A DNA stretch of 61,886 nt from a virus (lineage: Duplodnaviria; Caudoviricetes). Made by a program: the position numbers and the translations under genes. The stretch is taken from IMG/VR virus record IMGVR_UViG_3300025879_000023, positions 1-61,886 of that record; one strand, written 5' to 3'. The notes beneath the pieces are model-generated. The model had not been told where the DNA came from. It made no database searches and saw nothing but the letters and a program-made list of their open reading frames with translations. Below are positions 1,912 to 34,001 of the stretch, piece by piece (within the stretch, counting starts at the first letter, position 1; each line of letters begins with the position of its first letter).

Positions 1912-4900
1912 ATGGCTGAAATTAAAAATAATTTTATAAAAGCCAAAATGAACAAAGACCTGGACGACAGGCTTGTTCCTTCTGGAGAATATAGAAATGC
2001 GCAAAATATATCTATAAGTAGATCAGAAGGATCTGATGTTGGTGCTTTAGAAAATATATTAGGTAATTCTAAAGTAAACATTAGTGACCTTGGAATAAAT
2101 AATTTAGATGTTATTGGCTTTTTAGCTGATAGTGCAACTGATAGTATATATTTATTTTTAACTAATTACACAGATACATCTCCTTCTGGTTTAAGCAATT
2201 TTGCTCCGTCATCTGCTAATTGTATAATATCAAAATACAATAACGTTTCTAATACATATATAAAGCTTGTGCAGGGAAGTTTTTTAAACTTTTCTAAAAA
2301 TAGTCCAATAACCGGCGTTAATATACTAGAGGATTTGCTGTTTTTTACAGATAATAGAAACCAACCTAGAAAAATAAACGTTGCTTTAGCAAATACAAAC
2401 TCTTCGCCTAATCCAACATATTACGTTACAGAAGATACTATTTCTGTTGCTAAGCCAGCTCCGTTTGAAGCCATAAGACTTATTGATATTTCTTCTGGTT
2501 CAAGTAATTTAGAATCAACCATGGTTAATCCTGCACAAGAATTTATGCCAGATGGTTCTGAAAATCCTGATTATGATCCAAATTGGGATGGTGATCCAAA
2601 TTACCTTAAAGATAAATTTGTTAGATTTAGTTATAGATATAAGTTTGATGATGGCGAGTATTCTATAATTGCCCCGTTTACTCAAACATGCTTTATACCT
2701 AAACAGCAAGGATATTTTTTAGAAGGTGATCAAGACGAAGCGTATAGAAGTACAATAGTAAGGTTTTTTGAAAACAACGTTACTAATATTGGCTTAAATA
2801 TACCTTTTCAAACTACCAACCCAAAAACAGATTTACATATAAGTGAATTAGAAATTTTATATAAAGAATCCGATTCTACAAATATAAAAGTAATAGAGTC
2901 TATTCCAGTAAATGCTGTAGTTAGCAATATGCAGTCAAATGTAAACAAAACTGTTTACACTTTTGATTATATATCTACAAAGCCATATAAAACTTTACCG
3001 GCGGATCAAACGACTAGGGTTTATGACATGGTGCCAGTTAGAGCACTAGCCCAAGAGGTATCTGGCAATAGGGTTATGTATGGTAATTTTATGGATAAAA
3101 TGTCACCGCCAAGATCTTTAGATTATGGCGTTGGATATTCTAATAAACTTTATATACAAGACAACGAAAAATATCAAAGTCAAGTTGAATATCCTAACCA
3201 TACTTTAAAGCAAAATAGGAACTATCAGGTAGGTGTAGTATTATCAGATAAATTTGGCAGGCAATCTTCAGTCATTTTATCTTCAAACGATTTTTCAGGA
3301 TCAGAAGAGGAAGAAGTGCAGTATGGAGGTTCAACTATATATTTACCTTATTTTAATGGTGAACTTTCAGAAATACTAAGCTGGCCAGGCTATGCTCTTA
3401 GGGTTTTGTTTAATTCTGCAATTCCTGGAGTAGATTCAACAATTGAAGGTTATCCTGGTTTATATAGCTCTACAAATCCACTCGGCTGGTATTCTTATAA
3501 AATTGTAGTAAGACAACAAGAACAAGACTATTACAATGTATTCTTACCTGGTATTTTAAATGGTTATCCCAGTGGAACAACAAACTTTAATACTGAAGTA
3601 GATCAAACAGCAAACATCGTATTAATAAACGATAACATAAATAAAATTCCAAGAGATTTATCTGAAGTTGGTCCTGATCAAAGACAATACAGAAGTAGTG
3701 TTCAAATATTTGGTAGAGTAACACCAGATCCTTTAGATTCTACTTTAAACAAACAATATAAGCCTGGTATATTATCAGATACAGTTGTTTCAATATCTAC
3801 TGTAAATGATACTAACTACAATGAAACACAAGGATTAGATTTAGTATATCCGGAGTTTTATCAAAGTGAAACAAATCCACTTATCGGAAGGGTTAGCACA
3901 CAGCAGTCTATAGGAACTATTGGTAGTGCCACTTATAATATAACACTTGGAGTGTATGAAACTTCTCCAGTAATATCTTTATTAGATATATATTGGGAAA
4001 CAAGTACAACAGGATTAATTTCAGAATTGAACAATGAAATAACCCAAGGATTTAATGGTCCAGTTTATATTAATTTAAATGGAATATATAACCATAATGA
4101 AGGGATGGCTCCAGGCACAAAAGTAGTAAGCGGGGCTTATGCGGAAACAAGTGCTAGGGTTCCTATAAATGATAGAGAAGTATCATTTGAATTAGTTTCC
4201 GTTGTAAACGGTGGAGGAAATGATATTACAAATTCTTTTAATTTAGAAAAAACCCCAAATTCAAATTATCAATTTGATTTATTTATTGATGGAAGTTTCT
4301 ACTATGGAAGCAACAGCCAAAATGATATTAATATAAGAAATTTTACATTTACGGTAGCATGCACCGATAGTATTGATGGAACTACTCAAAATTTAGAATT
4401 TACTGGAAGCTTAAGCAATGTAGCGCCTAGTATAACAAATTGCCCTGGCTCAATAAATACAGGTGAATTAACCTCTCCTTGGGAAGTTTTTGATATGGAA
4501 GGAGTAAATGGATCTTATGGAATTCCTTTTATTGGATTAAAATGGGGATTAAAAGATATTAAAAAATTAGGAACATTAATTAGCGATCAAGATATGTTTG
4601 CTATAGATCAAACTAGCGGTCTTATAACAAATACAAATGGCACAGCAGAAGAAGGAGCAACGTATGAGTTTACTGTTACATTAGAAGATGCTGCTGGTGA
4701 ATTTGCTGAAGATTGTATTATATATGCTACTATTGGATCTGCTGCTCCAACCGCAACAATTATTCCGCACGCATCTTTGGATTCTACACAATCAACATAC
4801 TGGTATGTTTCATGGCTAGCTCTTGGTAGTGAATCAGAAGTTGGAATGCAACTATACTCTGGCCAAGAACGTACAGGTAGTCCACTTCCGCCGCCACCAG

Positions 4901-5118
4901 ATGGAAATTTATCGGTTTTAATAAATAAAGAAGACGGATTGCCAGTTTCTGGCGTAACTCTTGTTGAGTTCTTTTTTAAGCCGGAATCATCAAGCACTTG
5001 GCGACTAGTAGACTTTATAGAATTAGACCCAGGCACTCCCGGCCAATTATATTTTACTTTTACAAATGTACAGGATTATTACGAGTATAAGGTTAAAATC
5101 AAGGAAGGGGTAAGTTAA
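1912..5118 (+). CDS. Tail stabilization/muzzle protein (P22 gp10-like), N-terminal part, with C-terminal Ig/cadherin-like extension
   Basis: N-terminus KMNKDLDDRLVPSGEYRNAQNI...VGALENILGN plus LFFTDNRNQPRKIN and RFSYRYKFDDGEYS are characteristic of this family. Confidence 0.8.
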   Translation: MAEIKNNFIKAKMNKDLDDRLVPSGEYRNAQNISISRSEGSDVGALENILGNSKVNISDLGINNLDVIGFLADSATDSIYLFLTNYTDTSPSGLSNFAPSSANCIISKYNNVSNTYIKLVQGSFLNFSKNSPITGVNILEDLLFFTDNRNQPRKINVALANTNSSPNPTYYVTEDTISVAKPAPFEAIRLIDISSGSSNLESTMVNPAQEFMPDGSENPDYDPNWDGDPNYLKDKFVRFSYRYKFDDGEYSIIAPFTQTCFIPKQQGYFLEGDQDEAYRSTIVRFFENNVTNIGLNIPFQTTNPKTDLHISELEILYKESDSTNIKVIESIPVNAVVSNMQSNVNKTVYTFDYISTKPYKTLPADQTTRVYDMVPVRALAQEVSGNRVMYGNFMDKMSPPRSLDYGVGYSNKLYIQDNEKYQSQVEYPNHTLKQNRNYQVGVVLSDKFGRQSSVILSSNDFSGSEEEEVQYGGSTIYLPYFNGELSEILSWPGYALRVLFNSAIPGVDSTIEGYPGLYSSTNPLGWYSYKIVVRQQEQDYYNVFLPGILNGYPSGTTNFNTEVDQTANIVLINDNINKIPRDLSEVGPDQRQYRSSVQIFGRVTPDPLDSTLNKQYKPGILSDTVVSISTVNDTNYNETQGLDLVYPEFYQSETNPLIGRVSTQQSIGTIGSATYNITLGVYETSPVISLLDIYWETSTTGLISELNNEITQGFNGPVYINLNGIYNHNEGMAPGTKVVSGAYAETSARVPINDREVSFELVSVVNGGGNDITNSFNLEKTPNSNYQFDLFIDGSFYYGSNSQNDINIRNFTFTVACTDSIDGTTQNLEFTGSLSNVAPSITNCPGSINTGELTSPWEVFDMEGVNGSYGIPFIGLKWGLKDIKKLGTLISDQDMFAIDQTSGLITNTNGTAEEGATYEFTVTLEDAAGEFAEDCIIYATIGSAAPTATIIPHASLDSTQSTYWYVSWLALGSESEVGMQLYSGQERTGSPLPPPPDGNLSVLINKEDGLPVSGVTLVEFFFKPESSSTWRLVDFIELDPGTPGQLYFTFTNVQDYYEYKVKIKEGVS

Positions 5119-7003: not shown

Positions 7004-7723
7004 ATGGCAGGAATTCTAGCAGCTGGTATTGGTGCCGGTGTATCTTTATTAGGGGGTATATTTGGTGCTTCAAAAGCTAAAAAACAAGCAAAAGCAGCTG
7101 ATAAGCAAAGAAAAATAGCGGAAGCTAAAATAAACCATTTAGAAAGAACAAGGCAGCCAATTGTAAATCCATATGAGAGTGTTACAAATGTTAGCGGTCT
7201 TGCTACTGATTTAAGCGGTCAATTAAGTAATCCTTTCGAAAGTTTAGGTGTAGCTACTCAAGCGGCTGAAATGCAAATTGAAGAAGCAGATATAGCTTTA
7301 GCAAATACTTTAGACACAATTAGAGCTACTGGGTCTGGGGCTGGTGGCGCAACCGCGTTAGCGCAAGCTGCCTTACAAAGTAAAAAAGGTGTTTCTGCAA
7401 GCATTGAACAACAAGAAGCTCAAAACGAAAAATTAAGAGCTCAAGGAGAAAGCCAATTGCAGCAAGCAAAAATGGCAGAACAGCAAAGAGTGCAGGGTGT
7501 TCAAATAAGTGAAGCACAAAGAGTGCAACAAGCAGAAGCAGCTGGAAAGCAATTTATGTTTGGAGCTCAAGAGCAAAGAGACGTTGCAAAATTAGATAGA
7601 CTGTCTGGTCAAGAAAGCCAAGCAAGAGCCAATGTAGCTCAAGCAAATCAAGCAGGCGCTGCAGCATGGAGCGGCGCAATAAGCTCTATCGGCGGTATAG
7701 CCGGTTCATTAGCGGGAAAGTAG
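7004..7723 (+). CDS. Internal virion/ejection (cargo) protein; probable -1 frameshift extension to 7833
   Basis: Gly/Ala-rich hydrophobic termini and an Ala/Gln coiled coil, located after the tail genes. Ends in G GGA AAG TAG. Confidence 0.7.
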   Translation: MAGILAAGIGAGVSLLGGIFGASKAKKQAKAADKQRKIAEAKINHLERTRQPIVNPYESVTNVSGLATDLSGQLSNPFESLGVATQAAEMQIEEADIALANTLDTIRATGSGAGGATALAQAALQSKKGVSASIEQQEAQNEKLRAQGESQLQQAKMAEQQRVQGVQISEAQRVQQAEAAGKQFMFGAQEQRDVAKLDRLSGQESQARANVAQANQAGAAAWSGAISSIGGIAGSLAGK

Positions 7724-9417: not shown

Positions 9418-12400
9418 ATGAACGAATTAGAGCAAATAGTTCAGAGAATGATTGATGCTGGTGAATCAGAAGAAAACATAGCACTAGTAATAAAAGAGTA
9501 TAACAGCAAAACTTTACAGCCTTCTGAAAATGTGGGAAAGCCAGAAAGCCAAGGACTGGGTGCGCCTGTGGCGGAAAATGCAGCACCCGAAATTCAGCTA
9601 ACCGATACGGTTTCGCCATCGGCAGGTGGTTCTTTGGAATTACCAACCACTAAAGCTTATAGCATTGATGGCAAAAAGGTAACAAAAGAAGAATTTGATA
9701 ATTATACAAAAGAGCAAGAAAAAAAGAAAGAAATTGCTAAAATGAGCTTTATTGATAAGCTTAAAGTTGATTTAGCTAAAGGAAGTGTTAGTTTAGGTGA
9801 AATGTTTGCGTCAGTGCCTGAAACTATATATGATATAGCTTCATTGCCTCAAAACTTATTAGCAAAAATACCTGGTTTAGAAAAATTAAAAACTAGTTCT
9901 AAAGATTTTAAAGAGACAATTAATGTAGAAAATCCTATATTAGAATATTATTCTCAAGAAAAAGAGGAACTTGAAAAAGTGCAGAACATATATAACAATG
10001 CGAATTACGATACGCAAGGCATATATGAAAACTTTAAAAAAGGAAATTATTCTGATGGATTTAAACAGCTTGCTAGCGGCATAACCGAGAGTGCTCCCGT
10101 TAGTATATCTATGATGGTTGGTGGCGCAACTACTTCTATTGGTAAACTTAGTGCTGGCGGCACTGTGGTATTTGCTGGGCCAGAAATTGCAACTCAAAGA
10201 GAAGAAAAGCCAGAGCAATCAGAATTTGCAAATGTAATAAAGGGATTAGGTCTAGCAGCAGCAGAGACCGTATATAGCTCTATTGGTACAGGTACAATAG
10301 GTAAGGTATATAAAGACATATTACTTAGAGAAGGTAAAGAAGAAGGAGTTAAGGTATTTAGAAAAGGGCTGGTAGACATGTATTCTACTGCTTTAAAAAA
10401 GTTCGGCGCCCCAGCAGCGATGCTTGGAGAAGGCGTGGAAGAAGTAGCCACAACTATTACGCAGAACATGATAAACGAAAAAAACCCATTTGAAAATGTA
10501 GCTGATTCCTTTATACAAGGAGTTGGTGGTGGAGGCATATATGGGGCTCCGATAAACACTGCTCAAGCCATATCTGGAGTTAAAGACGGTATTACCAATA
10601 TAAAAATAAATAAAGAATTAAAAAATTCAAGCTTTAATAATATAGTAGACGCGTTTAAACCAGGAGCTAAATCCGAAGAGGCAACTATTAATGTTTCTAA
10701 AATTAAAAACGTTACTTCTGTATTTGACAAAAAAGTTAATTTAGAGGTTGAAAATGGAAACATTACAGAGTCCGAAGCTTATGACACTAAATTAAATTTT
10801 AGAAAAACACAACAAGCTGTAAACAGGCTTAAGCCGTTAGAATTTTCTTCTACTTTTGAAACAGAAGCTGTGGACTTGTTAAAAGAAAAAGAAAATTTAT
10901 CTAATGAAATAAAAGAAATTAACGATCCAAGTTTAACAGTTGTTCAAAAAACAAAATTAGAAACAATAAATAACAGGTTAGAAGAGCTTGTTATCGAAGA
11001 TTCTAAGACAAAAACAAAAGTAAAAGGCGAAGAGGATATTGCTAAGGCTAAAAAAATAGCAGAAGCTTTGCCTGAAGAGTTAAATCTTACTATAGAAGAT
11101 TTTGAAACTACAGCTGAGCTACAAGAAGCTTTGCAAAAAGAAGGCAAAACAGAGGGCGAAGCAAAAAAATTGTCTGATTCTTTTGGTTTTATTGTGCAAA
11201 AACCAAATGGTGGACCTCAAAAAATATATATAAACAAAGAGGTTGCTTTTAATTCTGGCGTGGCCACTACTGCTCAACATGAAGTTTTGCATGCTGTTTT
11301 AAGAAAAGCTATACCTGGTAACATTGAATTAGGAAAAAATTTAAAAGATTTTGTAGAGGAAATTGCCGGGGATAAATTCATGAACACTGAATTTGCTCAA
11401 AGGTTTGAGGCTTATGAGTTAGAATATGATAATACATTAAATAGTTTAAATACAGAATTAGATAGCGGAGCTATATCACAAGAAAAATACGAAACTGAAT
11501 CGCAAAAAGCATTAAGTAATTTATGGGAAGAAACTATGCCTTTGCTTTCAGAATCCATTACAAATGGTGATATTGACGTAAAGTCATCTATATGGGAAAA
11601 ATTAAAAGATTTTTTAAATAGAGTATTTAATACTTCTAATATTAAAAATGTTAAGTTTGATTCAGGTAAAGATGTATTTAATTTTGTAAAAGATTACAAT
11701 AAAATATACAAGACTGGAAAAGGCATTAAGACTCTTTCTAAAATAGCAAAAGGGGATATAGAAGGTAAGCTTGTAACAAATCAAGAATCAAAAATAGATG
11801 AAGTTATTAAATCATCTGTAGGTGATTTAGCATCAAGTAGAGTTCAACAAATATACGATGAACAAGGTGTTGCGGGAGCTATGGATATTGTTGATGAGTA
11901 TAAAGGTATGGCGGCTAAAATTGCCGCGGTATACAGAGATAGGCCTGGGTTTGAAACGTATAAAGAAGATTTAATAGATGGTATTTTAAACGATCCAACT
12001 TACGGGGTTTTAGGGTTAACTTTAAAATATAAGCCAGAAGAAAACAAAGGAGTGCCTTTGGCTGCTTATATTAATAAATATTTGCGACCTAGAAGTATTA
12101 CTTTAGCTAATCAACTTTTAGGCAAAGACGAAGCAAGTACATTTAAATCTGATATTACAGAAGTAAAAGATGTAATGGCTACAGAAACAGCAGAGGATGC
12201 TATTACTGCTTCTGAAGAAATTGCAAAAGAAAAACCTGTTAAAAAGAAACCTAAGCTTAGGGAATCTATTAGGCTAGACTCTGAGCTTAATGAAAAATTA
12301 AATAACGCATTACAAAAAGCAATTGCTTTAAATATTAAAAAATTTGATCAAGCTAAAGGGCAGAATCAAACAATATCCCCATTTGTAGCCGATGTTAAAA

Positions 12401-15400
12401 TAGACCTAGCCGAGCTTCTTGAAAAAGACGTAGTCAAATTAATAAAAAGCCAAGGTGTTGAAAATTTTTTAATAGAAAACAGAGAAGCTTTACTTGATAA
12501 TCTTACTACAACATTTTTATCTAAGCATCCGTTTTTTAGAAAAGGTATACTTAAAAGAGTAAAAGGAGAATGGGTCGCTCCGACTAAAGTTAGCACGTAT
12601 AAATACGATTGGATTAACGAAAAAACAGGAGATAAACTTAAAATAGATAGAGATAATGCAGCTGGCAGAGGTTTAACTTCTGGCCCTGAGTTTATTAAAA
12701 GAAATCCAAAAATAAAAGAAATATTAAAAGAAAATGAATTTGTAGATTATCATTTTCAAGATGGTGCTTTAAGAAATAAAATTAAAACAAATCCAGTTAA
12801 TTCTATTGCTAGACAAATATCTTCAGAATATGGCTTAGAAGTTCTGCAAGATGATTTACTTACGGAAGGGCCGTTAACAAAAGCTATTTCTGAAAGAGCA
12901 GATTTATATGGCATTGTAGTAGCTAAAGCAAGTGCTGAAAAGGCAGCTAAAGATATAGACAGGGGATTAATTAAATTCTCTATGTCAACCGCTCGAGTTG
13001 CGGATTCTGTTGTTAAAGGATATTTAAAATCTACTGACGGTATTAATTCTAAAGAATATAAAGATTATATAATCAGTCTTGGCAAAGATGGTAGTTATAT
13101 AGATGATTTAATTCAAAATAATTTATGGATTACGGAGCTTCTTCAAAACGAAAAAGCGGCTAATAAAGGATTAAAATATGAAAAGGTAATTGAAAGATTG
13201 CTTAATTCAACAATAAAAGAATCTGTAAAAGATTTTAAAGTTAAAATTTTAAAAGACCCTAAGCAAGGAGGTTTTTCTTCTAAAGGAAAAGGTGATTTAT
13301 CAATAGCTTTTAAAGACGTAATAGCAAATATTGAATTAAAATTAAATTCTGAAGCACAATCCGGAAGTTTTACTATAAAAAATATTGGCGAACAAAAACC
13401 AATTGAGGTAACAAACAAAAAAACAAGCTATCTTAAAGAAATGCAAGATGCTGTTGATAGTAAAGAATTTAAAGATGGTATTGCTAATTTTTTAAAGAAT
13501 GCAAAAGCAGAATTAAAAAGGCAAGGGTTTGATCCAAAAGAATATGATACAAGTAAGTTTCCTGTAGATCTTCCTAAAAGTGTAATGGAATCAATTGAAA
13601 AAACTGGTTTAAGTTTTAATATAGATCTTGAAAACTTAAATGAGATTATTGATTTTTATTCTAATAAAGGCGTCAACTATATTCAGATCGGAGATAAAGG
13701 ATTATTTTCAATTGGTAAGGATGTTCTAGGACTTGGTATTATGGCTCCAAGTTTACGTGGAAAAGGACAAATAAGGGTTAGAATGTTATCTTCTAACAAA
13801 GGAAAAGATATTAGATCGCAAAGATTTAGAGCATTTTATAACTTTACAGAAGTTAATACTCAAGATGGAGGTTTAACATTAGATAAACCGGATGACATTA
13901 AATTAATGTTAGAATCTGGCATTGATAATATAAAATTTTCTAAATCGATGGAGGCAACTCCTGAGGTAGAAAACTCTATGAATACCACGTTTAATAAAAT
14001 TATTGAACGTAAAAAAGGCGTTCTTGCAACTGAAACTATTTCAAAAGCAACAGCTAAATTAGCTGGTCAAAAAGAAGGTAGATTTAAATTATTTGTTCCG
14101 CCAACTGCTGATGATTTATTAGGTTTAGTATATAACTTTTTAGGAACAGGCAAGCAAGGAGATGCTGATATGCAATTTTTTAATGAAAAATTGTTTAGAC
14201 CATTAGCCAGAGCAAATTTTCAATTAAATGCTGAACGACAAGCTATAAAGCAAAGATGGCAAGAAGTTGTAAAATCAAATAAAGGCATTACCAAGGTTCT
14301 TAGGAAAGAAAGTGACTATAAGTTTTATACAAATGACCATGCTGTTAGAGCGTGGATGTGGGATAAACTTGGTTATGATATTCCTGGAATAAGCGAAACA
14401 GACAAGGCAGCATTAATAGAATCAGTTAATTCTAGTGAAAAGCTTTTAAAATTTGGAGAAGAACTTATAGATGTTCCAAACAAAAAAGAAAGCTGGTTAA
14501 AACCAGAAGATGATTGGACGGCTAGTACGGTTGAAATGGATCTTCAAGAAATACTAAGTAAAATTGGTAGAGCTAGAATATTTGAAGAGTTTATTACAAA
14601 TTCTGATATTATATTTTCAGAAGGTAATTTAAATAAAATTGAAGCAGCCTACGGTCCAAAATTAAGAGGAGCATTGGAAGATATGCTTTATCGTATTGAA
14701 AAAGGTAGAGCAAGAAATGAAGGCGGGAATAAAATGGCTGCGGCATATTTAGATTGGGTCAGAGGCTCGGTGGCTACAACTATGTTCTTTAACACAAGAT
14801 CAGCATTGCTTCAACAACTTTCTATTGTTAACTTTACAAACTGGGAGGATAACAACATATTTGCTCAGGGTAAATTTATCGCAGGGAGCCCTAAAACGTA
14901 CGCAAAATATTGGACTGATATATTTAATTCCGATTGGATGAAAGAGCGTAGACAGGGCTTAAAAACAGATATAAACGAGTCTGAGCTTGTAGCTAAACTA
15001 GAAGGAAGCAAAAACAAAAACAAAGCTTTATTAGCTTATATTTTAGAAAAAGGATTTTCACTTACTAAATATGGAGATAATATCGCAATAGCAACCGGCG
15101 GAGCGCCGTTTTTGTATAACAGAGAACAAAAGTATATTAAAGAAGGCATGACGCCTGCTGAAGCAAAAAAAGAAGCATTTTTAGATTTTCAAGAATTAGC
15201 AGAAAGCACACAACAATCTTCAAGACAAGATTTATTGTCAAATCAACAGGTTAGTGTTATTGGCAGGATATTTTTAGCTTTCCAAAACACGACTATGCAA
15301 ATGACCCGCTTACAAAAGAAAGCTGCTTTAGATTTAATAAATAAAAGAGGTAGCTTTAAAGCGAATATATCAAGGCTTGTTTACTATGGCGCAATCCAAA

Positions 15401-16056
15401 ATACTATATTTTCTTTCTTACAAAGCGCTTTATTTGCTGGTGTTTTTGGAGATGATGAAGATGAAAATTTAAAACTAGATGATAAAACTTTAAGAGCTGC
15501 TAATACTGTACTCGATAGTGCATTAAGAGGATCCGGTATTGGTGGAGCAGCATTAGCTACATTAAAAAATGCAATTATTGCATGGGCAAAAGAAAATGAT
15601 AAAGGTTGGAAAGCTGATAATTCAAAAGTAATTATTGAATTACTAAATATTTCTCCAGCTGTTGGTATTAAGGCTAGAAAAATTAACACAGCAATGAATG
15701 CTTATAAATATGGCAACAAGGTAGTTGATGATGTTAGCTTTGCTAATCCAAATCACCCTTATTACGGTATTGCTGGAAGTTTAACTTCAGCAGCATTTAA
15801 CATACCATTAGATCGAGTTGTTACAAAAGCGCAAAACCTGCAAGCTTTAACAAATCAGGAAGCAGAAGCATGGCAACGTACAGCTCTATTTTTAGGTTAT
15901 AACACTTGGGATGTTGGATTAAAAGATCCTGAAATTGAAGCAGCTAAAAAATCTGCTAAAAAAAGTAAATCATCAAGCAGAACATCGGGCAGAACATCCG
16001 GTAGAACATCCGGTAGAACATCCGGTAGAACATCAGGAAGAAGCTCAAATAGATAA
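9418..16056 (+). CDS. Giant multidomain internal virion (ejected) protein with zincin, sigma-region-2-like and PD-(D/E)XK-like domains
   Basis: 2212 aa and last of the cargo genes. HEVLH at about 11278, sigma-like segment about 11860-12120, E..D..ELK nuclease motif about 13160-13380, helical C-terminal domain and a basic RTSG tail. Confidence 0.7.
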   Translation: MNELEQIVQRMIDAGESEENIALVIKEYNSKTLQPSENVGKPESQGLGAPVAENAAPEIQLTDTVSPSAGGSLELPTTKAYSIDGKKVTKEEFDNYTKEQEKKKEIAKMSFIDKLKVDLAKGSVSLGEMFASVPETIYDIASLPQNLLAKIPGLEKLKTSSKDFKETINVENPILEYYSQEKEELEKVQNIYNNANYDTQGIYENFKKGNYSDGFKQLASGITESAPVSISMMVGGATTSIGKLSAGGTVVFAGPEIATQREEKPEQSEFANVIKGLGLAAAETVYSSIGTGTIGKVYKDILLREGKEEGVKVFRKGLVDMYSTALKKFGAPAAMLGEGVEEVATTITQNMINEKNPFENVADSFIQGVGGGGIYGAPINTAQAISGVKDGITNIKINKELKNSSFNNIVDAFKPGAKSEEATINVSKIKNVTSVFDKKVNLEVENGNITESEAYDTKLNFRKTQQAVNRLKPLEFSSTFETEAVDLLKEKENLSNEIKEINDPSLTVVQKTKLETINNRLEELVIEDSKTKTKVKGEEDIAKAKKIAEALPEELNLTIEDFETTAELQEALQKEGKTEGEAKKLSDSFGFIVQKPNGGPQKIYINKEVAFNSGVATTAQHEVLHAVLRKAIPGNIELGKNLKDFVEEIAGDKFMNTEFAQRFEAYELEYDNTLNSLNTELDSGAISQEKYETESQKALSNLWEETMPLLSESITNGDIDVKSSIWEKLKDFLNRVFNTSNIKNVKFDSGKDVFNFVKDYNKIYKTGKGIKTLSKIAKGDIEGKLVTNQESKIDEVIKSSVGDLASSRVQQIYDEQGVAGAMDIVDEYKGMAAKIAAVYRDRPGFETYKEDLIDGILNDPTYGVLGLTLKYKPEENKGVPLAAYINKYLRPRSITLANQLLGKDEASTFKSDITEVKDVMATETAEDAITASEEIAKEKPVKKKPKLRESIRLDSELNEKLNNALQKAIALNIKKFDQAKGQNQTISPFVADVKIDLAELLEKDVVKLIKSQGVENFLIENREALLDNLTTTFLSKHPFFRKGILKRVKGEWVAPTKVSTYKYDWINEKTGDKLKIDRDNAAGRGLTSGPEFIKRNPKIKEILKENEFVDYHFQDGALRNKIKTNPVNSIARQISSEYGLEVLQDDLLTEGPLTKAISERADLYGIVVAKASAEKAAKDIDRGLIKFSMSTARVADSVVKGYLKSTDGINSKEYKDYIISLGKDGSYIDDLIQNNLWITELLQNEKAANKGLKYEKVIERLLNSTIKESVKDFKVKILKDPKQGGFSSKGKGDLSIAFKDVIANIELKLNSEAQSGSFTIKNIGEQKPIEVTNKKTSYLKEMQDAVDSKEFKDGIANFLKNAKAELKRQGFDPKEYDTSKFPVDLPKSVMESIEKTGLSFNIDLENLNEIIDFYSNKGVNYIQIGDKGLFSIGKDVLGLGIMAPSLRGKGQIRVRMLSSNKGKDIRSQRFRAFYNFTEVNTQDGGLTLDKPDDIKLMLESGIDNIKFSKSMEATPEVENSMNTTFNKIIERKKGVLATETISKATAKLAGQKEGRFKLFVPPTADDLLGLVYNFLGTGKQGDADMQFFNEKLFRPLARANFQLNAERQAIKQRWQEVVKSNKGITKVLRKESDYKFYTNDHAVRAWMWDKLGYDIPGISETDKAALIESVNSSEKLLKFGEELIDVPNKKESWLKPEDDWTASTVEMDLQEILSKIGRARIFEEFITNSDIIFSEGNLNKIEAAYGPKLRGALEDMLYRIEKGRARNEGGNKMAAAYLDWVRGSVATTMFFNTRSALLQQLSIVNFTNWEDNNIFAQGKFIAGSPKTYAKYWTDIFNSDWMKERRQGLKTDINESELVAKLEGSKNKNKALLAYILEKGFSLTKYGDNIAIATGGAPFLYNREQKYIKEGMTPAEAKKEAFLDFQELAESTQQSSRQDLLSNQQVSVIGRIFLAFQNTTMQMTRLQKKAALDLINKRGSFKANISRLVYYGAIQNTIFSFLQSALFAGVFGDDEDENLKLDDKTLRAANTVLDSALRGSGIGGAALATLKNAIIAWAKENDKGWKADNSKVIIELLNISPAVGIKARKINTAMNAYKYGNKVVDDVSFANPNHPYYGIAGSLTSAAFNIPLDRVVTKAQNLQALTNQEAEAWQRTALFLGYNTWDVGLKDPEIEAAKKSAKKSKSSSRTSGRTSGRTSGRTSGRTSGRSSNR
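15979..16041 (+). repeat. 12-bp tandem repeat (AGAACATCCGGT) x5 encoding (RTSG)5
   Basis: Read directly from the sequence. Confidence 0.95.
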
Positions 16057-26583: not shown

Positions 26584-27345
26584 TCAAAGATAATCAATTA
26601 CTTGCGAAGAATCTACATTTTCTATTAATTTTTGCACTGCTTGTTTCTTTATTTCAGAAATTCTCACATACGCACTTGATCCTTCTATATTTAATATTTC
26701 TGCTATTTTATTTGCAGAATGCTTATCACAATTAAGCCCATAGCTTAATCTCAATACTTCAAATTCTCTTTCATCTAAATGCTTTTTTAACAAACTTGTT
26801 AAATATACATTAAGCAAAGCTATATTATAAGGTTCAGACTGATCTGGTATTTGGTGCATCATATTTTCATCATCTTCATTAACTTGTTCATCAATACTTA
26901 AGAATATAGAATTAAAAAACATAGCCACCATTGCTTTATCTTTACCTTCATCTTTTCTAATTTCATTTAGCTTATGCTCTGGTATTCTTATATCACCTCT
27001 ATTAATATCAATAGCTCTTCGTATTGACCCTTTTATTCTTTTTGACAGGAATGACTTTAATGTTTTTTCTGGATCGTCAGATTCAATTACTGTCTCCCAA
27101 ATTATTTTATCTACCGCTCTTATTAGTCCAAGACTTCCATCTTGAATAAGATCTGTAATATCCATAACACCTGATGCTTGATCAGAAGTTGAAAACTTCC
27201 TAGCAATATTCTCTACCAATGGCAGGAAAGTAACAATTAGTTCGTCTCGTGTGTAATCTTGAAATGCTTTAAACTCAATTAAATTAATTGACGCTTTAAC
27301 ATCATCTTTATACCTCACATAATTGCGAATGTTGTACTTTTTCAT
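26584..27345 (-). CDS. RNA polymerase sigma-70 family factor
   Basis: Region 2 LPLVENIARKF...DLIQDGSLGLIRAVDK, IRIPEH, and region 4 LDEREFEVLRLSYGL...IAEIL...RI.EIK.QA..KL. Confidence 0.9.
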   Translation of the reverse strand: MKKYNIRNYVRYKDDVKASINLIEFKAFQDYTRDELIVTFLPLVENIARKFSTSDQASGVMDITDLIQDGSLGLIRAVDKIIWETVIESDDPEKTLKSFLSKRIKGSIRRAIDINRGDIRIPEHKLNEIRKDEGKDKAMVAMFFNSIFLSIDEQVNEDDENMMHQIPDQSEPYNIALLNVYLTSLLKKHLDEREFEVLRLSYGLNCDKHSANKIAEILNIEGSSAYVRISEIKKQAVQKLIENVDSSQVIDYL

Positions 27346-30224: not shown

Positions 30225-30230
30225 ACAATT

Positions 30231-30257
30231 ATATTATCAATTAGTATTCGTGCTAAG
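30231..30257 (-). promoter_or_regulatory. Early promoter motif copy 1 (degenerate)
   Basis: Minus strand CTTAGCACGA-N7-TTGATAATAT. Confidence 0.7.
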
Positions 30258-30258
30258 T

Positions 30259-30447
30259 TTATTTTTTAAACGAACTTTGTTTTACTAATTTATTTTTAAA
30301 TCTTGATTTGCCTTTAGTTTCAATAGACAACCATTCGTCGTCAGTTAATGGTTTACACTCACCAAGACCAGCTAATTTTTTGATACGTGCATAAGCTGCT
30401 TGCTTGCGTTGTTCTTCTTTGTATTGTAAAAATTCTTCTTTGGTCAT
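30259..30447 (-). CDS. Hypothetical basic protein (MTKEEFLQYKEEQRKQ...)
   Basis: ATG at 30447 lies just after the upstream stop. Confidence 0.6.
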   Translation of the reverse strand: MTKEEFLQYKEEQRKQAAYARIKKLAGLGECKPLTDDEWLSIETKGKSRFKNKLVKQSSFKK

Positions 30448-30449
30448 GA

Positions 30450-30797
30450 TTAAAAAGTATGTGCCATGTGATTTCTTATGTAAAGTTCCTTGTATAATTG
30501 TTCCCATCTGATGCTGTCGTCGTCTAGTCCGCAAGCATTAAGTATGTATTGATCAACATATATATTAGAACCTAAGTCTATAGCAGATTCGATTTCATCT
30601 TGAAGCATATAAGCATCAATATATATATCTCTATCAGTTATTACATTACCCCATTTACCTTGATCCATAGCTACATAAATATCGTAGCCATCTGCTGTTT
30701 GTATTGATTCAAATGTAACATCATAATCCGTTCCTTTGTGTTCAGTGTCAAGTATTGCTCCTGACTTTTCAATTACTAAATTTTTGTAGTGTGACAT
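30450..30797 (-). CDS. Hypothetical acidic protein
   Basis: Track ORF 30450-30806; probable start 30797. Confidence 0.65.
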   Translation of the reverse strand: MSHYKNLVIEKSGAILDTEHKGTDYDVTFESIQTADGYDIYVAMDQGKWGNVITDRDIYIDAYMLQDEIESAIDLGSNIYVDQYILNACGLDDDSIRWEQLYKELYIRNHMAHTF

Positions 30798-30799
30798 AA

Positions 30800-30988
30800 T
30801 TACCATGTTTTAGTTAAGTGTGTGTTATAATATTGTTTTAATGTTTTATTAAATATTTGTATTGCTTCGTCGTCTGTTTCTTTAATTATATTTTTTGTGT
30901 ATAGCATTTCAAGTAGTTGCTCGCTTACAAAGTCACAAGTAAGTTCGTATAGATCGCTAGATAGTTCTTGATATTCTGGCTTTGTCAT
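30800..30988 (-). CDS. Hypothetical protein
   Basis: 62 aa, coupled to its neighbours. Confidence 0.6.
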   Translation of the reverse strand: MTKPEYQELSSDLYELTCDFVSEQLLEMLYTKNIIKETDDEAIQIFNKTLKQYYNTHLTKTW

Positions 30989-31287
30989 TATTGTGCGATT
31001 AAGTTATTAGCTGCATACTCTTCAAATGATGGTCCGTGATCGTAGAAGTTTTGATAGATTGCATTGTAAGCTGCTTCTTCATAGCTTCGAGGTCTGCCAA
31101 ACAAATCGTCTTCTTGAAATACATCGTAGTTTAATTCGTCAACTGCATCTTTGCAATCTTTAGTGTAGATACACATATTGTCAACAACCTCGTGTATAGC
31201 AGCGTAGTAGTCGTCTAGATCTTGAATAGTATAATCTTTTAAGTCTAATAAAATTCGTTCAGTGTAAAGTCTTTCAAAGTGTGTCAT
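30988..31287 (-). CDS. Acidic early protein, possible Ocr-like DNA mimic
   Basis: 99 aa Asp/Glu-rich; DDYYAAIHEVVDN.CIY..D recalls T7 Ocr (DAIHMAADNAVPHYYAD). Confidence 0.5.
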   Translation of the reverse strand: MTHFERLYTERILLDLKDYTIQDLDDYYAAIHEVVDNMCIYTKDCKDAVDELNYDVFQEDDLFGRPRSYEEAAYNAIYQNFYDHGPSFEEYAANNLIAQ

Positions 31288-31314
31288 AGTTATATGTTTT
31301 TAGTTGTTACATTT

Positions 31315-31341
31315 ATATTATCAATTGTTGTTCGTGTTAAG
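31315..31341 (-). promoter_or_regulatory. Early promoter motif copy 2
   Basis: Minus strand CTTAACACGA-N7-TTGATAATAT. Confidence 0.75.
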
Positions 31342-31345
31342 CTTA

Positions 31346-31951
31346 TTAGTGGTATATTAATCCTACTTTGTTTGTTGTATTAAACCATTTGGTTGCGTTT
31401 AAATCATTCTCAGAAGCATTTGCGTATCCTGCTGCAGTTAGTTCATCTTTACTTTTAAAAATTTCTGTGTGACGATCAATTGTGCGATCAATCATATGTT
31501 TTTGTTTGCCCGAGTTACTATAGATAACATCAAAATTGTCAGGTAGTATTGTGTTTTTAAACATCTCAACCATATTCGTGTAGCTATAGAATTTAACATC
31601 TGGATTTTGTACTGCAATCTTTAACCACTTGTCAAGATATGCCCTAGAATAATAGTCGCCCGAGTCGTGTATGCGGACAAAGTCTGCTTTCTTCTTTTTT
31701 ATTTCATCATTCATTTTTGAAATGAATTCTGTTGTTTTAGTTAATTCATACCTCTTTTCAAATGCCGGTTTAACGTTCGACCATATATATGCACCTTTCT
31801 TAGCATAACAAAACTTAACACATTCAAGAGCCATCGGACAAGTTAATTTACCACTTGCAGATTTGTATGCAGGGATCCCAAAGTTAAATACCCGCTTGTT
31901 AAGTAATGTACTTGTTTTTTTTAGTTTAGAGTTTTGTGTAAGTAAATTCAT
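31346..31951 (-). CDS. Gp88-like (radical-SAM-related) protein
   Basis: N.KLKKT, TCPMA.EC.KFCYA, VRIHDSGDY and FYSYT. Confidence 0.75.
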   Translation of the reverse strand: MNLLTQNSKLKKTSTLLNKRVFNFGIPAYKSASGKLTCPMALECVKFCYAKKGAYIWSNVKPAFEKRYELTKTTEFISKMNDEIKKKKADFVRIHDSGDYYSRAYLDKWLKIAVQNPDVKFYSYTNMVEMFKNTILPDNFDVIYSNSGKQKHMIDRTIDRHTEIFKSKDELTAAGYANASENDLNATKWFNTTNKVGLIYH

Positions 31952-31977
31952 TTTAGTTTGTTTTAGTTGTTACATAT

Positions 31978-32005
31978 ATATTATCAATGCTCTACCGTGT
32001 TAACC
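31978..32005 (-). promoter_or_regulatory. Early promoter motif copy 3
   Basis: Minus strand GGTTAACACGG-N7-TTGATAATAT. Confidence 0.8.
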
Positions 32006-32008
32006 TTG

Positions 32009-32197
32009 TTAAAGCTTTAAATCTTTATTTATTTTTCTAATTTCTTTTTTCATTTCAATAATCAATTCTTTTAATACATATTTGTATTCAATCTTCAACG
32101 CAGCAAAATCTTCAAAATATAAATGCTTTCCTAAACTTGGTTTTGTTACCGCCGCGTGTATAGCATGCTCCCGTACCTTATCTTTATATAAACTCAT
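32009..32197 (-). CDS. Hypothetical protein
   Basis: ATGA overlap start at 32197. Confidence 0.6.
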   Translation of the reverse strand: MSLYKDKVREHAIHAAVTKPSLGKHLYFEDFAALKIEYKYVLKELIIEMKKEIRKINKDLKL

Positions 32198-32376
32198 GAC
32201 CATACTCTTATTAGATATTTTAATGTGTATTCTTCATCTTGTCTTGCAGTAAATTTCTTTGCTTCATCATATGCAGCATGTATATCCTCAGCATAAAAAC
32301 TATACTCAATTAGTTGTCTATTGTCTTGGACAGCTTGGAACTCTGTTCTATATAAGCCTAAGTTATTGTCTTCCAT
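32194..32376 (-). CDS. Hypothetical protein
   Basis: 60 aa; A-rich leader. Confidence 0.6.
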   Translation of the reverse strand: MEDNNLGLYRTEFQAVQDNRQLIEYSFYAEDIHAAYDEAKKFTARQDEEYTLKYLIRVWS

Positions 32377-32497
32377 AATTATATAAGTTTTATTTATATT
32401 GTTGTAAAGGTTGTTAATTATTTGTTAGAATTAAAAGTAATGGTGTTATAATGAAGAGTCTCGTACTCTGTCGCATTATTTCTTCGTGTGAAAAACA

Positions 32498-32541
32498 GCG
32501 ACATTAGCCTGTTAATTATTATAGTAGTAGGCTAACGTCCC
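32498..32541. repeat. 44-bp inverted-repeat site, copy B
   Basis: GCGACATTAGCCT-GTTAATTATTATAGTAGT-AGGCTAACGTCCC, intergenic. Confidence 0.85.
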
Positions 32542-32552
32542 ACTTTTTTTAG

Positions 32553-32771
32553 TTATAATTCTGCACTTTCAAAACAGTCGTATGCGTCAGTTACTTGTTT
32601 TATTTTGAATGCTGTTTTAAGATCTAGCAAGACGCTAAGTGTTAAGTCGCCTACAAATTTTTGCGTGGTGAGGTTGTGTTCAAGACGTTCACCGAGTGCC
32701 GGGTATTCTTTTTTGAATAAGATTAGTCTTGTTTGATATTGCGGTTGTAGTCTTTGGTTTAGTGTTTTCAT
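32553..32771 (-). CDS. Hypothetical early protein
   Basis: 72 aa behind promoter copy 4. Confidence 0.7.
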   Translation of the reverse strand: MKTLNQRLQPQYQTRLILFKKEYPALGERLEHNLTTQKFVGDLTLSVLLDLKTAFKIKQVTDAYDCFESAEL

Positions 32772-32794
32772 GTGTGTGTTTTTTAGTTACGTAT

Positions 32795-32822
32795 ATATTA
32801 TCAAATGTGTTTCGTGTCAACC
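32795..32822 (-). promoter_or_regulatory. Early promoter motif copy 4
   Basis: Minus strand GGTTGACACGA-N7-TTGATAATAT. Confidence 0.85.
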
Positions 32823-32826
32823 TTAT

Positions 32827-33003
32827 TTAAAAGTAGTCTTGGCGTATAAAGTTATTTATTATGTTATGTATAGCATCTTGATTGGTTCTTGTGTTGTGCA
32901 CATATCTTTCATCTTGTTTCCAATTCTTCAAGTTGTTTTCACCTTGCCACTTAGCATAGATCTCGTGAGCGATTTGTTGTAGTGTAGTTTCTTGTGTAGT
33001 CAT
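32827..33003 (-). CDS. Hypothetical early protein (MTTQETTLQQIAHEIYAKW...)
   Basis: 58 aa, hand-translated; exactly fills the space between promoter copies 5 and 4. Confidence 0.65.
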   Translation of the reverse strand: MTTQETTLQQIAHEIYAKWQGENNLKNWKQDERYVHNTRTNQDAIHNIINNFIRQDYF

Positions 33004-33027
33004 AGTTATATTATTTAATGTTCATAT

Positions 33028-33055
33028 TTATTATCAATTTAGTCTCGTGTCAACC
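33028..33055 (-). promoter_or_regulatory. Early promoter motif copy 5
   Basis: Minus strand GGTTGACACGA-N7-TTGATAATAA. Confidence 0.85.
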
Positions 33056-33220
33056 TTATTTATATTCATTGTCTAAGGATCCATGGATATAAGACTCTTC
33101 AATAGCACTTTGTATTTTAGCTAAGCACATTTTTTCTGAGATGGTTTGTTTATTTATGTAGCAATCCATTATTGAAGTGATGAGGTCTAGTGTTGCTTCG
33201 TTTGTTTTAGCTTCGTTCAT
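33056..33220 (-). CDS. Hypothetical early protein (MNEAKTNEATLDLITSIMDCY...)
   Basis: 54 aa, hand-translated; stop abuts promoter copy 5. Confidence 0.6.
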   Translation of the reverse strand: MNEAKTNEATLDLITSIMDCYINKQTISEKMCLAKIQSAIEESYIHGSLDNEYK

Positions 33221-33231
33221 AGTTGTATTTT

Positions 33232-33339
33232 TTAATTGTTAAAATCTTCATATACTTCTTGTACCCATTCTTTTTCATTAGGACCTAGTTGGTTGTAGTC
33301 CATACCAAATTCGTCGTTTGCAATTCCATTGTAAGTCAT
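33232..33339 (-). CDS. Small acidic early protein (MTYNGIANDEFGMDYNQLGPNEKEWVQEVYEDFNN)
   Basis: 35 aa, hand-translated; behind promoter copy 6. Confidence 0.6.
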   Translation of the reverse strand: MTYNGIANDEFGMDYNQLGPNEKEWVQEVYEDFNN

Positions 33340-33362
33340 AGTTATATTTTTTAGTTACATAT

Positions 33363-33390
33363 ATATTATCAATAGTCCTTCGTGTTAACC
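33363..33390 (-). promoter_or_regulatory. Early promoter motif copy 6
   Basis: Minus strand GGTTAACACGA-N7-TTGATAATAT. Confidence 0.85.
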
Positions 33391-33408
33391 TTTTTTATGT
33401 ATAGCATT

Positions 33409-33630
33409 TTATTTACAATACTTTTCTTCGTAGGCCATTAAATATTCTACTTGTTCTTTAAGATTTTTAAATTGTTTTTTTACTTGGTAGATTAATGGAG
33501 CTTGGTGGTAAGGGTTGTCTTGATTTGTTTTAAACCTTATGTATCTAGTTGTTGGGTATATTGCAGCCCATTTGCCATTTGCTAATGTGAAATAAAGATT
33601 TCCTTTTTTAGTTACTTTTATTAGTTCCAT
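33409..33630 (-). CDS. Hypothetical early protein
   Basis: 73 aa behind promoter copy 7. Confidence 0.7.
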   Translation of the reverse strand: MELIKVTKKGNLYFTLANGKWAAIYPTTRYIRFKTNQDNPYHQAPLIYQVKKQFKNLKEQVEYLMAYEEKYCK

Positions 33631-33653
33631 AATTATATTTTTTAGTTACATTT

Positions 33654-33681
33654 ATATTATCAATTTACTCTCGTGTCAACC
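33654..33681 (-). promoter_or_regulatory. Early promoter motif copy 7
   Basis: Minus strand GGTTGACACGA-N7-TTGATAATAT. Confidence 0.85.
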
Positions 33682-33864
33682 TTATCTTTTTAGTAAACTA
33701 TCTAAGAATAAAGCTATTCCATTCTCATAGTCTTGCATTGCTTTAGACTCTTCGCATGTGTAGATTGGTTTGTGTGTCATAGCTCTTGTTTCTACTCCAT
33801 TTTTAGTGTAGTCGATCCATGTGTAATTAGACTTAGGGCTTGTGTGAATTTTGTAAGGAATCAT
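33682..33864 (-). CDS. Hypothetical early protein (MIPYKIHTSPKSNYTWIDY...)
   Basis: ATG at 33864 follows the ATATAACT leader; stop abuts promoter copy 7. Confidence 0.7.
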   Translation of the reverse strand: MIPYKIHTSPKSNYTWIDYTKNGVETRAMTHKPIYTCEESKAMQDYENGIALFLDSLLKR

Positions 33865-33887
33865 AGTTATATATTTTATATTCATAT

Positions 33888-33915
33888 ATATTATCAAAGT
33901 GAACTCGTGTCAACT
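33888..33915 (-). promoter_or_regulatory. Early promoter motif copy 8
   Basis: Minus strand AGTTGACACGA-N7-TTGATAATAT. Confidence 0.85.
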
Positions 33916-33973
33916 CTTTTTTTATTTAGACTAAGTAATATTTAATTATTATTATTATTTTTTACTTACATAT

Positions 33974-34001
33974 ATATTATCAAATAGCACTCGTGTCAAC
34001 C
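33974..34001 (-). promoter_or_regulatory. Early promoter motif copy 9 (no ORF behind it)
   Basis: Minus strand GGTTGACACGA-N7-TTGATAATAT. Confidence 0.85.

Follow-up and report, generated by a model that had tools for sequence, protein, structure and literature searches.

A sigma-domain-2-like module within a giant, probably virion-borne protein of a flavobacterial-type podovirus

The virus record IMGVR_UViG_3300025879_000023 of an uncultured marine phage (61,886 bp, 34% G+C, completeness 96%), the whole of which forms the window analysed here, encodes a giant protein of 2,212 residues, and embedded in this protein is a compact helical module that very probably has the fold of sigma-70 domain 2. 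A stretch resembling sigma region 2 had been noticed at 11860-12120 in a first-pass annotation of the DNA, and this holds up: on the plus strand the interval translates in frame and without stops as residues 815-901 of the giant open reading frame (ORF), and structural matches, a broadened sequence profile and shuffled controls all agree on its nature. We consider it likely that the module is a true, if very diverged, homologue of sigma domain 2. With rather less assurance, somewhat short of an even chance, we propose that it is a docking handle on the host RNA polymerase, delivered within the ejected giant protein, while the host holoenzyme would read the early promoters and a separate, free-standing phage sigma factor would serve later genes. 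The compact module as a whole extends over residues 806-928 and is bordered on both sides by charged linkers of variable length, as judged from a 74-row full-length alignment of giant-protein homologues (A1); the coordinates of this and all other features are collected in Table 1.

The fold was approached through an AlphaFold2 model built on a 29-row alignment of the module alone (A2). The model has a mean predicted local distance difference test score (pLDDT) of 86.7, with values of 94-97 over its residues 1-95, and consists of helices at 2-22, 24-32, 40-53, 59-65 and 76-95. When it was compared by VIA-align with 48,161 chains of the Protein Data Bank (PDB), ranks 1-22 were all occupied by sigma-factor entries. 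The best match is SigB (8x6g_H), with Z 8.9 and a root-mean-square deviation (rmsd) of 2.8 Å over 87 residues. Close to it lie sigma28 (Z 7.8), a fragment of RpoS (5h6x, Z 7.6), chain F of the T4 late-transcription complex (7d7d_F, Z 7.6, or 7.6-7.7 over both models that we built), sigma32 (Z 7.5) and sigma70 (1sig, Z 7.5, rmsd 2.5 Å over 86 residues), and further matches include pro-sigmaK, the N-terminal domain of SigE and several extracytoplasmic function (ECF) factors. The earliest clearly unrelated fold, the Set2 SRI domain, appears at rank 26 with Z 5.8. A second model, covering residues 800-1210 and built on a 28-row alignment of the giant protein (A4), again contains the sigma-2 domain at a pLDDT of about 90, with sigma factors at VIA-align ranks 1-18 and SigB once more prominent (Z 8.4). 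Foldseek, which the first-pass annotation had suggested as a check of this region, came out in favour of sigma domain 2, since 47 of the 49 PDB rows listed for the A2 model are sigma or RNA polymerase-sigma entries, with probabilities up to 0.95. Against BFVD the top match was one member of the family itself (rmsd 1.1 Å), followed by many named phage sigma factors. Foldseek applied to the 411-residue two-domain model returned long-helix matches only, which are meaningless for the assignment.

The module therefore shares its helical fold with the second domain of classical sigma-70 factors (PF04542; SigB 8x6g_H, RpoS 5h6x, SigE 8b3z, sigma70 1sig and sigma28 6pmj), and the motifs E-D-L-I, G-[VI]-L-x-L and [YF]-x-P, together with an aromatic residue in the last helix, stand in the expected places. 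It departs from those factors in lying inside a 2,212-aa protein rather than in the N-terminal half of a 20-70 kDa factor, in falling below the Pfam threshold, in carrying an insertion of 4-6 residues in the helix equivalent to region 2.2, and in that no sigma-3 or sigma-4 domain was found after it.

At the level of sequence profiles, support for sigma domain 2 is marginal but in the correct register. A search of PDB sequences with the A2 profile returned 5 matches at E ≤ 10; three of them are sigma factors aligned in register (among them the SigE N-terminal domain at 0.25 and FliA at 1.6). The profile was broadened by adding nine divergent module copies from 50 related viral records, which are largely complete marine phage genomes, and nine ordinary ones. 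With this broadened profile (A5), the top match is the SigE N-terminal domain at E = 0.0081, with pro-sigmaK (0.38), RpoS (0.8) and FliA (0.85) likewise in register; the first eight distinct sequences comprise five sigma factors and three eIF1A proteins. Alignment of A2 by hhalign to a mixed set of 19 sigma-2 segments, composed of 10 cellular sigma factors from two metagenome-assembled genomes (MAGs) and of phage sigma factors, scored 20.5 in register (P = 0.0047, probability 7.5%). None of 200 column shuffles of A2 reached that score; their mean was 9.7, with a standard deviation of 1.7 and a maximum of 15.3. The broadened alignment matched the mixed set in register with P = 0.0015 and a probability of 17%, and gave a weak in-register match to the 10 cellular sigma factors (P = 0.04). 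The resemblance of the module to sigma region 2 exceeds chance. A narrower origin, in which the module would be a paralogue of the phage's own sigma factor, was considered and set aside, as hhalign aligned the two in register with P values (0.062 and 0.01) that are insufficient for such a claim.

Perhaps the most sceptical account of these data is that the resemblance is one of fold alone, and that a helical domain has kept, or converged on, the sigma-2 topology without any role at the polymerase, serving instead for packing, as a spacer, or as a unit that interacts with DNA or membranes. Several results speak for it and weigh against our assignment. VIA-align itself cautions that Z values of 7-9 (below 8-13) can reflect common helical arrangements, which mostly helical models often reach, and one chain alone attains Z ≥ 8. 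In the structural matches the module is 14-20% identical to sigma factors. Foldseek gave nothing against the PDB at E ≤ 0.001, all of its E-values lying above 0.3 (best 0.33). The Pfam model Sigma70_r2 (PF04542) matches none of the 29 module members even at E ≤ 10 and finds no match in the whole giant protein at E ≤ 1, and a six-frame scan of the window with it picks up the separate sigma gene only. Aligned to the 10 cellular sigma factors alone, A2 yields nothing in register, and hhalign probabilities are low throughout (0.9-17%). Furthermore, the family is confined to giant proteins, with no free form among the 150 clusters listed of the 331 described below. These points have to be set against hit lists that are almost purely sigma in three libraries and with two models, against the late rank and low Z of the first clearly unrelated fold, and against sequence profiles that independently select sigma domains in register and beat 200 of 200 shuffles. 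Moreover, the match spans 86-90 of the approximately 96 residues of the module at 2.5-3 Å. Because the hit lists are so pure and the coverage so nearly complete, we take the sigma match to be more than a common helical arrangement, and regard a resemblance of fold alone as unlikely.

The module is widespread and conserved as a unit. A word-indexed search (929 candidates) recovered homologues of residues 760-960 in 163 proteins of 1,216-3,871 aa at E ≤ 0.001. The A2 profile, run against 1.84 billion representative proteins, found 331 clusters (defined at 50% identity) at E ≤ 0.001 and 272 at E ≤ 1e-10. The 150 clusters listed of these 331 are all giant proteins or shorter pieces, 107-3,294 aa in length, and contain neither a free-standing sigma factor nor a free-standing form of the module; the short proteins look like fragments of contigs. 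In the 50 related viral records the A2 profile detects the module in 18, and A5 adds 12 of the remaining 32, which brings the count to at least 30 of 50; the carriers are always giant ORFs of 1,755-3,405 aa. A free-standing factor made of sigma domain 2 only, of the T4 gp55 type, is thus not what is seen, the module occurring inside giant ORFs only, so that a free form would have to be produced by processing. Across relatives its identity drops to about 20% (20-24%), while positions Y8, G58, L76, N81, L84 and F104 are invariant in A2. The best-conserved stretch ([SP]-L-x-[AG]-[YW]-[IL]-N...) is the equivalent of sigma regions 2.3-2.4, the helix that melts DNA and reads the -10 element, and it keeps the aromatic residue and the Asn. 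The 2.2-equivalent helix, in which the 4-6 residue insertion lies, is broken at residues 859-863 in the model.

What follows the module indicates that it is sigma domain 2 only and not a complete sigma factor. The first-pass annotation had envisaged a ready-made sigma-like factor; we find instead that the domain gives way to a linker predicted to be disordered and then to a further folded domain, referred to here as domain X. Pfam finds no match to Sigma70_r4 (sigma-4) in the 2,212-aa protein, and an Atlas search with domain X gave no usable match. Structure searches with the two-domain model likewise returned no match for domain X, but in these the lists of matches are taken up by sigma domain 2. 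Of the 12 relatives tested, 2 have domain X after the module, and the other 10 have a different sequence in its place. Because differing domains follow it among relatives, we regard the module as a mobile cassette.

A domain of this kind raises the question of which promoters it might serve, and the window offers both a candidate set of early promoters and a second sigma factor. The separate sigma gene named in the first-pass annotation is borne out by its domain matches (Table 1). Its product is 63-98% identical over 80 related viral loci and the gene is present in all 50 related records examined; in two cultured relatives that we tested, neither this gene nor the module was found. The nine early-type promoters of this phage read TTGACA-N17-TATATA. 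Within them the 9-mer GATAATATA occurs repeatedly, the window holding 12 copies against 1.66 expected, 8 of them in the promoter array and 4 inside genes. The strict promoter pattern, with its -35-like TTGACA, is found in 12 of the 50 related records. The promoter core ACGA-N9-GATAATATA, with one mismatch allowed, is found in 47 of 50 in several strand-biased copies (reversed-pattern controls, 0-2), and the -35-like hexamer drifts in relatives to TTAATA, CTAACA or TAAACA. Records with the module keep the core in 27 of 30 cases, at a mean of 5.3 copies, and those without a detectable module keep it in 20 of 20, at a mean of 4.65. The idea that these early promoters are unusual is weakened: in this phage they have a textbook form, and their core is shared by relatives with and without a detectable module. 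On present evidence they appear to need no special factor, and the host holoenzyme would be their simplest reader. The findings speak, short of proof, against the module as their reader, because the core persists in all 20 records without a detectable module and because the module diverges while the core and the free sigma are conserved.

The opposite view is that the module acts as an injected minimal sigma factor, in which the ejected sigma-2 domain binds host core polymerase and reads the -10-like GATAATATA before any phage protein is made, the free sigma taking over later. The fold itself is compatible with this, as is the presence among the best structural matches of 7d7d_F (Z 7.6-7.7), which we take to be gp55. 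T4 gp55 offers a precedent, being phage-encoded and sigma-2-only like the module. It reads a -10-like element without a -35. It differs in being a free late protein of 185 aa, synthesised during infection inside the cell and acting together with gp33 and the gp45 clamp, whereas the module sits in a probable virion protein. The retention of the core in 47 of 50 records, as against TTGACA in 12 of 50, suggests promoters dominated by the -10 element, of a kind within reach of a factor that has sigma domain 2 only. Where the module is best conserved it aligns with regions 2.3-2.4, with the aromatic and Asn retained, and looks similar to the corresponding part of the sigma encoded by the phage itself; free sigma and module also appear to travel together at the level of lineages, because both are missing in the two cultured relatives tested. 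The balance is nevertheless against a minimal sigma. Promoters with TTGACA-N17-TATATA may be read well enough by host holoenzyme, and they also approximate the Bacteroidota type, TTG-N20-TAnnTATG. The promoter core is retained in every one of the 20 relatives in which no module was detected, and it is invariant while the module falls to about 20% identity. Neither a sigma-4 domain nor a gp33-like partner was identified, and the module's likeness to the phage's own sigma does not reach significance (P = 0.062 and 0.01). We judge a minimal sigma distinctly unlikely. Its most explicit form, in which a virion-delivered sigma-2 cassette, perhaps cut at K-F-S motifs by the HExxH domain, would load on core polymerase at entry and open GATAATATA of the nine promoters, so that the first transcripts include that of the phage's own sigma, strikes us as improbable.

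The docking proposal requires the module to reach the cell with the genome, and the giant protein is probably carried in the virion, a conclusion that we reach by analogy. Its gene closes the virion block and lies downstream of a homologue of the crAss-type muzzle gene. In the crassvirus phiCrAss001, cargo proteins and polymerase subunits are encoded behind the muzzle gene and were found in virions by mass spectrometry, according to the available text of the crassvirus atlas (PMC10172136). In Flavobacterium phage elemoA and Cellulophaga phage phi38:1 the syntenic last gene, with a product of 3,694 aa and 1,691 aa, respectively, bears the annotation 'structural protein', for phi38:1 on the basis, as given in the record, of 'similarity to phi18:1'; the accessible part of the paper on Baltic Flavobacterium phages (PMC7077304) does not cover the elemo phages. 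Two features of these syntenic proteins of cultured phages count against carrying the analogy over to our protein: they share no sequence similarity with it beyond HExxH and Gly-rich regions, and they are without the module. Virion presence is therefore argued by analogy only.

The amino acid composition is consistent with a virion protein. There are no cysteines in the 2,212 residues of the giant protein, against 13.9 expected from the other 43 ORFs (Poisson P ~9e-7). Virion-block proteins encoded at 5148-6545, 7004-7723, 7844-9409, 34852-37980 and 38015-39928 are also free of cysteine, and in the phage's intracellular and replication enzymes cysteine makes up 0.7-2.8% of residues. As a separate observation on the muzzle region, the ORFs at 1912-5118 and 5148-6545 correspond to the front and rear portions, respectively, of a single PHROG of 1,474 positions (phrog_14478, virion structural protein), as if one muzzle-like gene were split in two.

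The giant protein itself is a chain of cassettes. Single-sequence searches reveal little of it: no PHROGs family matches, Pfam and phmmer against the PDB give noise only, with nothing significant in Pfam, and tblastn against 50,697 phage records finds no match. Mapping of homologues along the protein delineates conserved blocks at residues 760-1200 and 1510-2190, with a variable region at 1200-1500 between them. An HExxH motif, nearly invariant among homologues, lies about 180 residues upstream of the sigma-2-like module. The first-pass annotation had spoken of an adjacent zincin domain; the motif is there, and the polyvalent-protein metallopeptidase model MPTase-PolyVal (PF18818) has no match in the window at E ≤ 10. 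Because the full-length A4 profile gave only coiled-coil and low-complexity matches in the PDB (dynactin, Mediator), the zincin assignment stays at the level of the motif. The tripeptide K-F-S occurs twice in the protein (0.7 expected), both times at cassette boundaries. Among named Atlas clusters, those nearest to the C-terminal block B contain LPD39 (in 28% of members) and LPD38 (in 88%); we treat both as leads only. The LPD38 model PF18857 has no match in the window at E ≤ 10, although the control for that model also matched nowhere. Cargo domains vary between members of the family, and homologues carry others, namely Zeta_toxin/AAA, DUF6934 and DUF5763. One metagenomic homologue of 3,472 aa (P0037) has a Zeta_toxin/AAA kinase-like domain at 2356-2508 and an LPD14 match of 23 bits (cut-off 27). 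The extreme C terminus of the giant protein (15973-16053) is a basic tandem repeat of S-G-R-T in about five copies, which follows a Lys-rich stretch.

Table 1. Positions of the features discussed in the text; residue numbers refer to the giant ORF.
Feature	Position	Strand	Details
Virion protein, 1,068 aa, with N-terminal crAss-type muzzle homology	1912..5118	+	crAss_MUZ 1.6e-11, 43.6 bits (cut-off 27); phrog_14478
Giant ORF of 2,212 aa that closes the rightward virion block	9418..16056	+	chain of cassettes, no cysteine
HExxH motif, possible zincin metallopeptidase	11278..11292 (aa 621-625)	+	H, E and H each at least 90% conserved in A1 and A4
I-K-S-S motif, candidate cassette boundary six residues before the module	11806..11817 (aa 797-800)	+	alignment unreliable here
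Sigma-domain-2-like module, core	11833..12120 (aa 806-901)	+	helices match sigma regions 1.2, 2.1, 2.2 and 2.3-2.4
Acidic tail of the module, conserved (F..DVTE....ETAED), low-confidence helix	12121..12201 (aa 902-928)	+	pLDDT ~50-55; F104, D107 and E118 conserved in A2
Linker, predicted disordered, Lys/Glu-rich	12127..12246 (aa 904-943)	+	pLDDT 30-41 in second model; variable in alignment
Domain X, alpha-plus-small-beta	12247..12963 (aa 944-1182)	+	pLDDT 80-96
I-K-F-S motif, candidate processing site, end of the sigma-2 and domain X cassette	12970..12981 (aa 1185-1188)	+	[IVA]KFS in 37/74 rows of A1
Second I-K-F-S motif, start of the conserved C-terminal block	13930..13941 (aa 1505-1508)	+	consensus K.KFSK before block B in A1
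Block B, conserved C-terminal, most conserved part of the family	13945..15987 (aa 1510-2190)	+	homologue alignments
Free-standing phage sigma, 253 aa, regions 2 and 4	26584..27345	-	Sigma70_r2 2.2e-6, r4 2.6e-4, phrog_351 6.3e-24
Nine early-type promoters, TTGACACGA-N7-TTGATAATATA	30230..33999	-	9 matches against 0.01 expected; each before a small leftward ORF; one of the nine at 33653-33679

We tentatively propose the following route for the docking handle. The giant protein would be packed in the particle and ejected with the DNA, in the manner of crassvirus cargo and of the polyvalent proteins described by Iyer et al. 2017. On reaching the cytoplasm, and perhaps once the HExxH domain has cut the protein at the K-F-S boundaries, the sigma-2 module would dock on the clamp helices of the host beta-prime subunit. 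These helices are the site used by every sigma-2 domain. Because it would dock there, the module could act as a handle on the polymerase, either holding the enzyme at the entering genome, bringing a neighbouring cargo domain to it, or competing with the host sigma. The early promoters would be read by host holoenzyme and not by the module, with the 253-aa free sigma serving later genes. Prediction of a complex between the A2 module and residues 180-420 of Flavobacterium johnsoniae beta-prime gave scores of 0.29, 0.31 and 0.29, run without controls and to be read against a mark of 0.32; these weigh on neither side of the question of binding.

Several observations sit uneasily with a pure docking role. 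The early promoter is dominated by its -10-like element, and conservation within the module is strongest in the helix equivalent to regions 2.3-2.4, which fits the reading of DNA at least as well as docking. The insertion and break in the 2.2-equivalent helix could alter the surface that faces beta-prime. The argument from relatives without the module is also softened, because the broader A5 profile recovered it in 12 of 32 records that had earlier counted as lacking it, so that its absence from the remaining 20 may be non-detection.

A related possibility is that the grip on the polymerase serves to shut off the host. Here the module would mimic sigma by occupying the sigma site of free host core and blocking re-association of host sigma, while existing holoenzyme and later the phage sigma transcribe the phage DNA. 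A sigma-2-only domain with no DNA-anchoring sigma-4 detected would suit that role, as would the presence of a complete sigma encoded by the phage, and the fast divergence of the module may be of the kind typical of proteins engaged in host-virus conflict. The few molecules in a virion could, however, hardly titrate thousands of polymerases; the copy number of crassvirus cargo is, for example, 6-12 per particle in the available text of the atlas (PMC10172136). Such a mimic would also compete with the phage's own sigma. We therefore hold host shut-off to be very unlikely, and return to the docking handle as our preferred reading.

A close architectural parallel to a docking handle of this kind is provided by the polyvalent proteins described by Iyer, Burroughs, Anand, de Souza and Aravind in 2017 (PMC5512222), a group that includes the virion RNA polymerase of phage N4. 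In the part of that survey available, processing by zincins and the jump-starting of transcription are proposed for them (PMC5512222). As in these proteins, we find a giant multi-domain chain with HExxH, a variable cargo of several unrelated domains that differ among relatives, and a virion-like position and composition. Unlike them, the window has no match to the MPTase-PolyVal and LPD38 models at E ≤ 10, and because of this, membership among the polyvalent proteins is argued from architecture only. A further difference from the N4 virion RNA polymerase is that the transcription device here would be a sigma domain borrowing the host enzyme, not a polymerase.

The likeness to crassviruses lies in the position of the cargo. 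In phiCrAss001 the large genes gp45-gp50 lie just downstream of the muzzle gene, as does the giant gene here, and the available text of the atlas describes their products as virion-packaged and as presumably leaving the particle in a partly unfolded state to start transcription (PMC10172136). Unlike in crassviruses, no RNA polymerase family or D.D.D motif was found in the proteins examined here, the portal and terminase are closest to those of Flavobacteriaceae podoviruses, and the genome is of 62 kb rather than about 100 kb. The first-pass annotation had already remarked on the missing polymerase motif, and we find the same, D.D.D being absent from the giant protein and no RNA polymerase family appearing among the 30 ORFs scanned with PHROGs or Pfam. 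Its crAss-like frame, in contrast, does not fit a phage whose portal is nearest to those of Flavobacterium, Cellulophaga, Maribacter and Tenacibaculum podoviruses, even though a muzzle homologue is present.

The portal gene (58115-60526) and the terminase are nearest to podoviruses of Flavobacteriaceae, with 87 records matched. The portal shares 52% identity with an uncultured Caudoviricetes record, 42.5% with the elemo phages of Flavobacterium, 42.6% with Maribacter phage Panino and 26-33% with phages of Cellulophaga and Tenacibaculum. None of the 44 ORFs is preceded by a Shine-Dalgarno-like motif (AGGA, GGAG or GAGG), and their leaders are A-rich. The lack of such motifs is typical for Bacteroidota and their phages. 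Both the count of 0/44 and the A-rich leaders fit a Bacteroidota host. Because of this nearest kinship of portal and terminase, together with the missing Shine-Dalgarno motifs, the phage is by sequence comparison a flavobacterial-type podovirus and not a canonical crAss-like phage. A scan of MAG contigs found the module on two short contigs alone, one from a Parvibaculum MAG and one from an Arcobacter MAG, the latter of which also has phage-type sigma genes on tiny contigs. Neither Parvibaculum nor Arcobacter was accepted as host, since the contigs concerned (L086, L087, L093, L095) are probably phage contigs that were mis-binned on account of their composition.

The genome is organised in two opposed gene blocks. 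The rightward block runs from about 34.8 kb through the end of the record to 16 kb and comprises tail genes, GroEL, terminase, portal and virion proteins; the GroEL homologue lies at 49485-51041 (phrog_5725, 1.3e-133). The leftward block starts at about 34 kb and continues to 17 kb; it comprises small early ORFs and the genes for sigma, ERF, a nuclease, a primase-helicase and ribonucleotide reductase. The ERF recombinase and a PDDEXK-like nuclease (25295-26559) adjoin the sigma gene. Just upstream of that gene, overlapping it by 38 nt, a 217-aa ORF at 27308-27961 on the minus strand has a weak HTH_11 match (4.9e-5, below cut-off) and may encode a transcription regulator paired with the sigma. 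A second repeated motif, GTGTATAGCAT, often placed after a T-run, is present in 4-5 copies (28658, 29911, 30894, 32153 and 33391, in plus-strand coordinates) in the leftward early/middle region, and could represent another class of promoter or an operator. A 53-nt element is present three times (27955-28007, 32498-32550 and 34372-34424). It is a G+C-rich inverted repeat, two copies of which close with a T-run, and the three copies resemble terminators that delimit the early region.

The word 'sigma' does not occur in the available portions of the main text of the polyvalent-protein survey (PMC5512222) or of the crassvirus atlas (PMC10172136). Of the papers listed by our literature search, none links polyvalent proteins with a sigma factor as far as the listings show, and on packaged or ejected sigma factors the search returned a T4 review only.

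Phages are known to begin early transcription by leaving the host holoenzyme unchanged, by injecting an RNA polymerase, as N4 and the crassviruses do, or by injecting enzymes that modify the host polymerase, such as T4 Alt. A sigma domain built into a giant protein that is probably ejected would add a fourth device to these, in which a ready-made hold on the host polymerase is delivered with the genome. If the module were instead a minimal sigma, it would represent a third way of bringing transcription competence into the cell, beside virion RNA polymerases and modifying enzymes. In either case the module is common, with 331 clusters and a presence in at least 30 of 50 related marine genomes, and its carriers are abundant ocean phages that probably infect Flavobacteriia. 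As a naturally minimised, fast-evolving sigma-2 domain it also lends itself to study of the interface between sigma and beta-prime. By means of such a module, the phage may take hold of the host RNA polymerase as it enters the cell.

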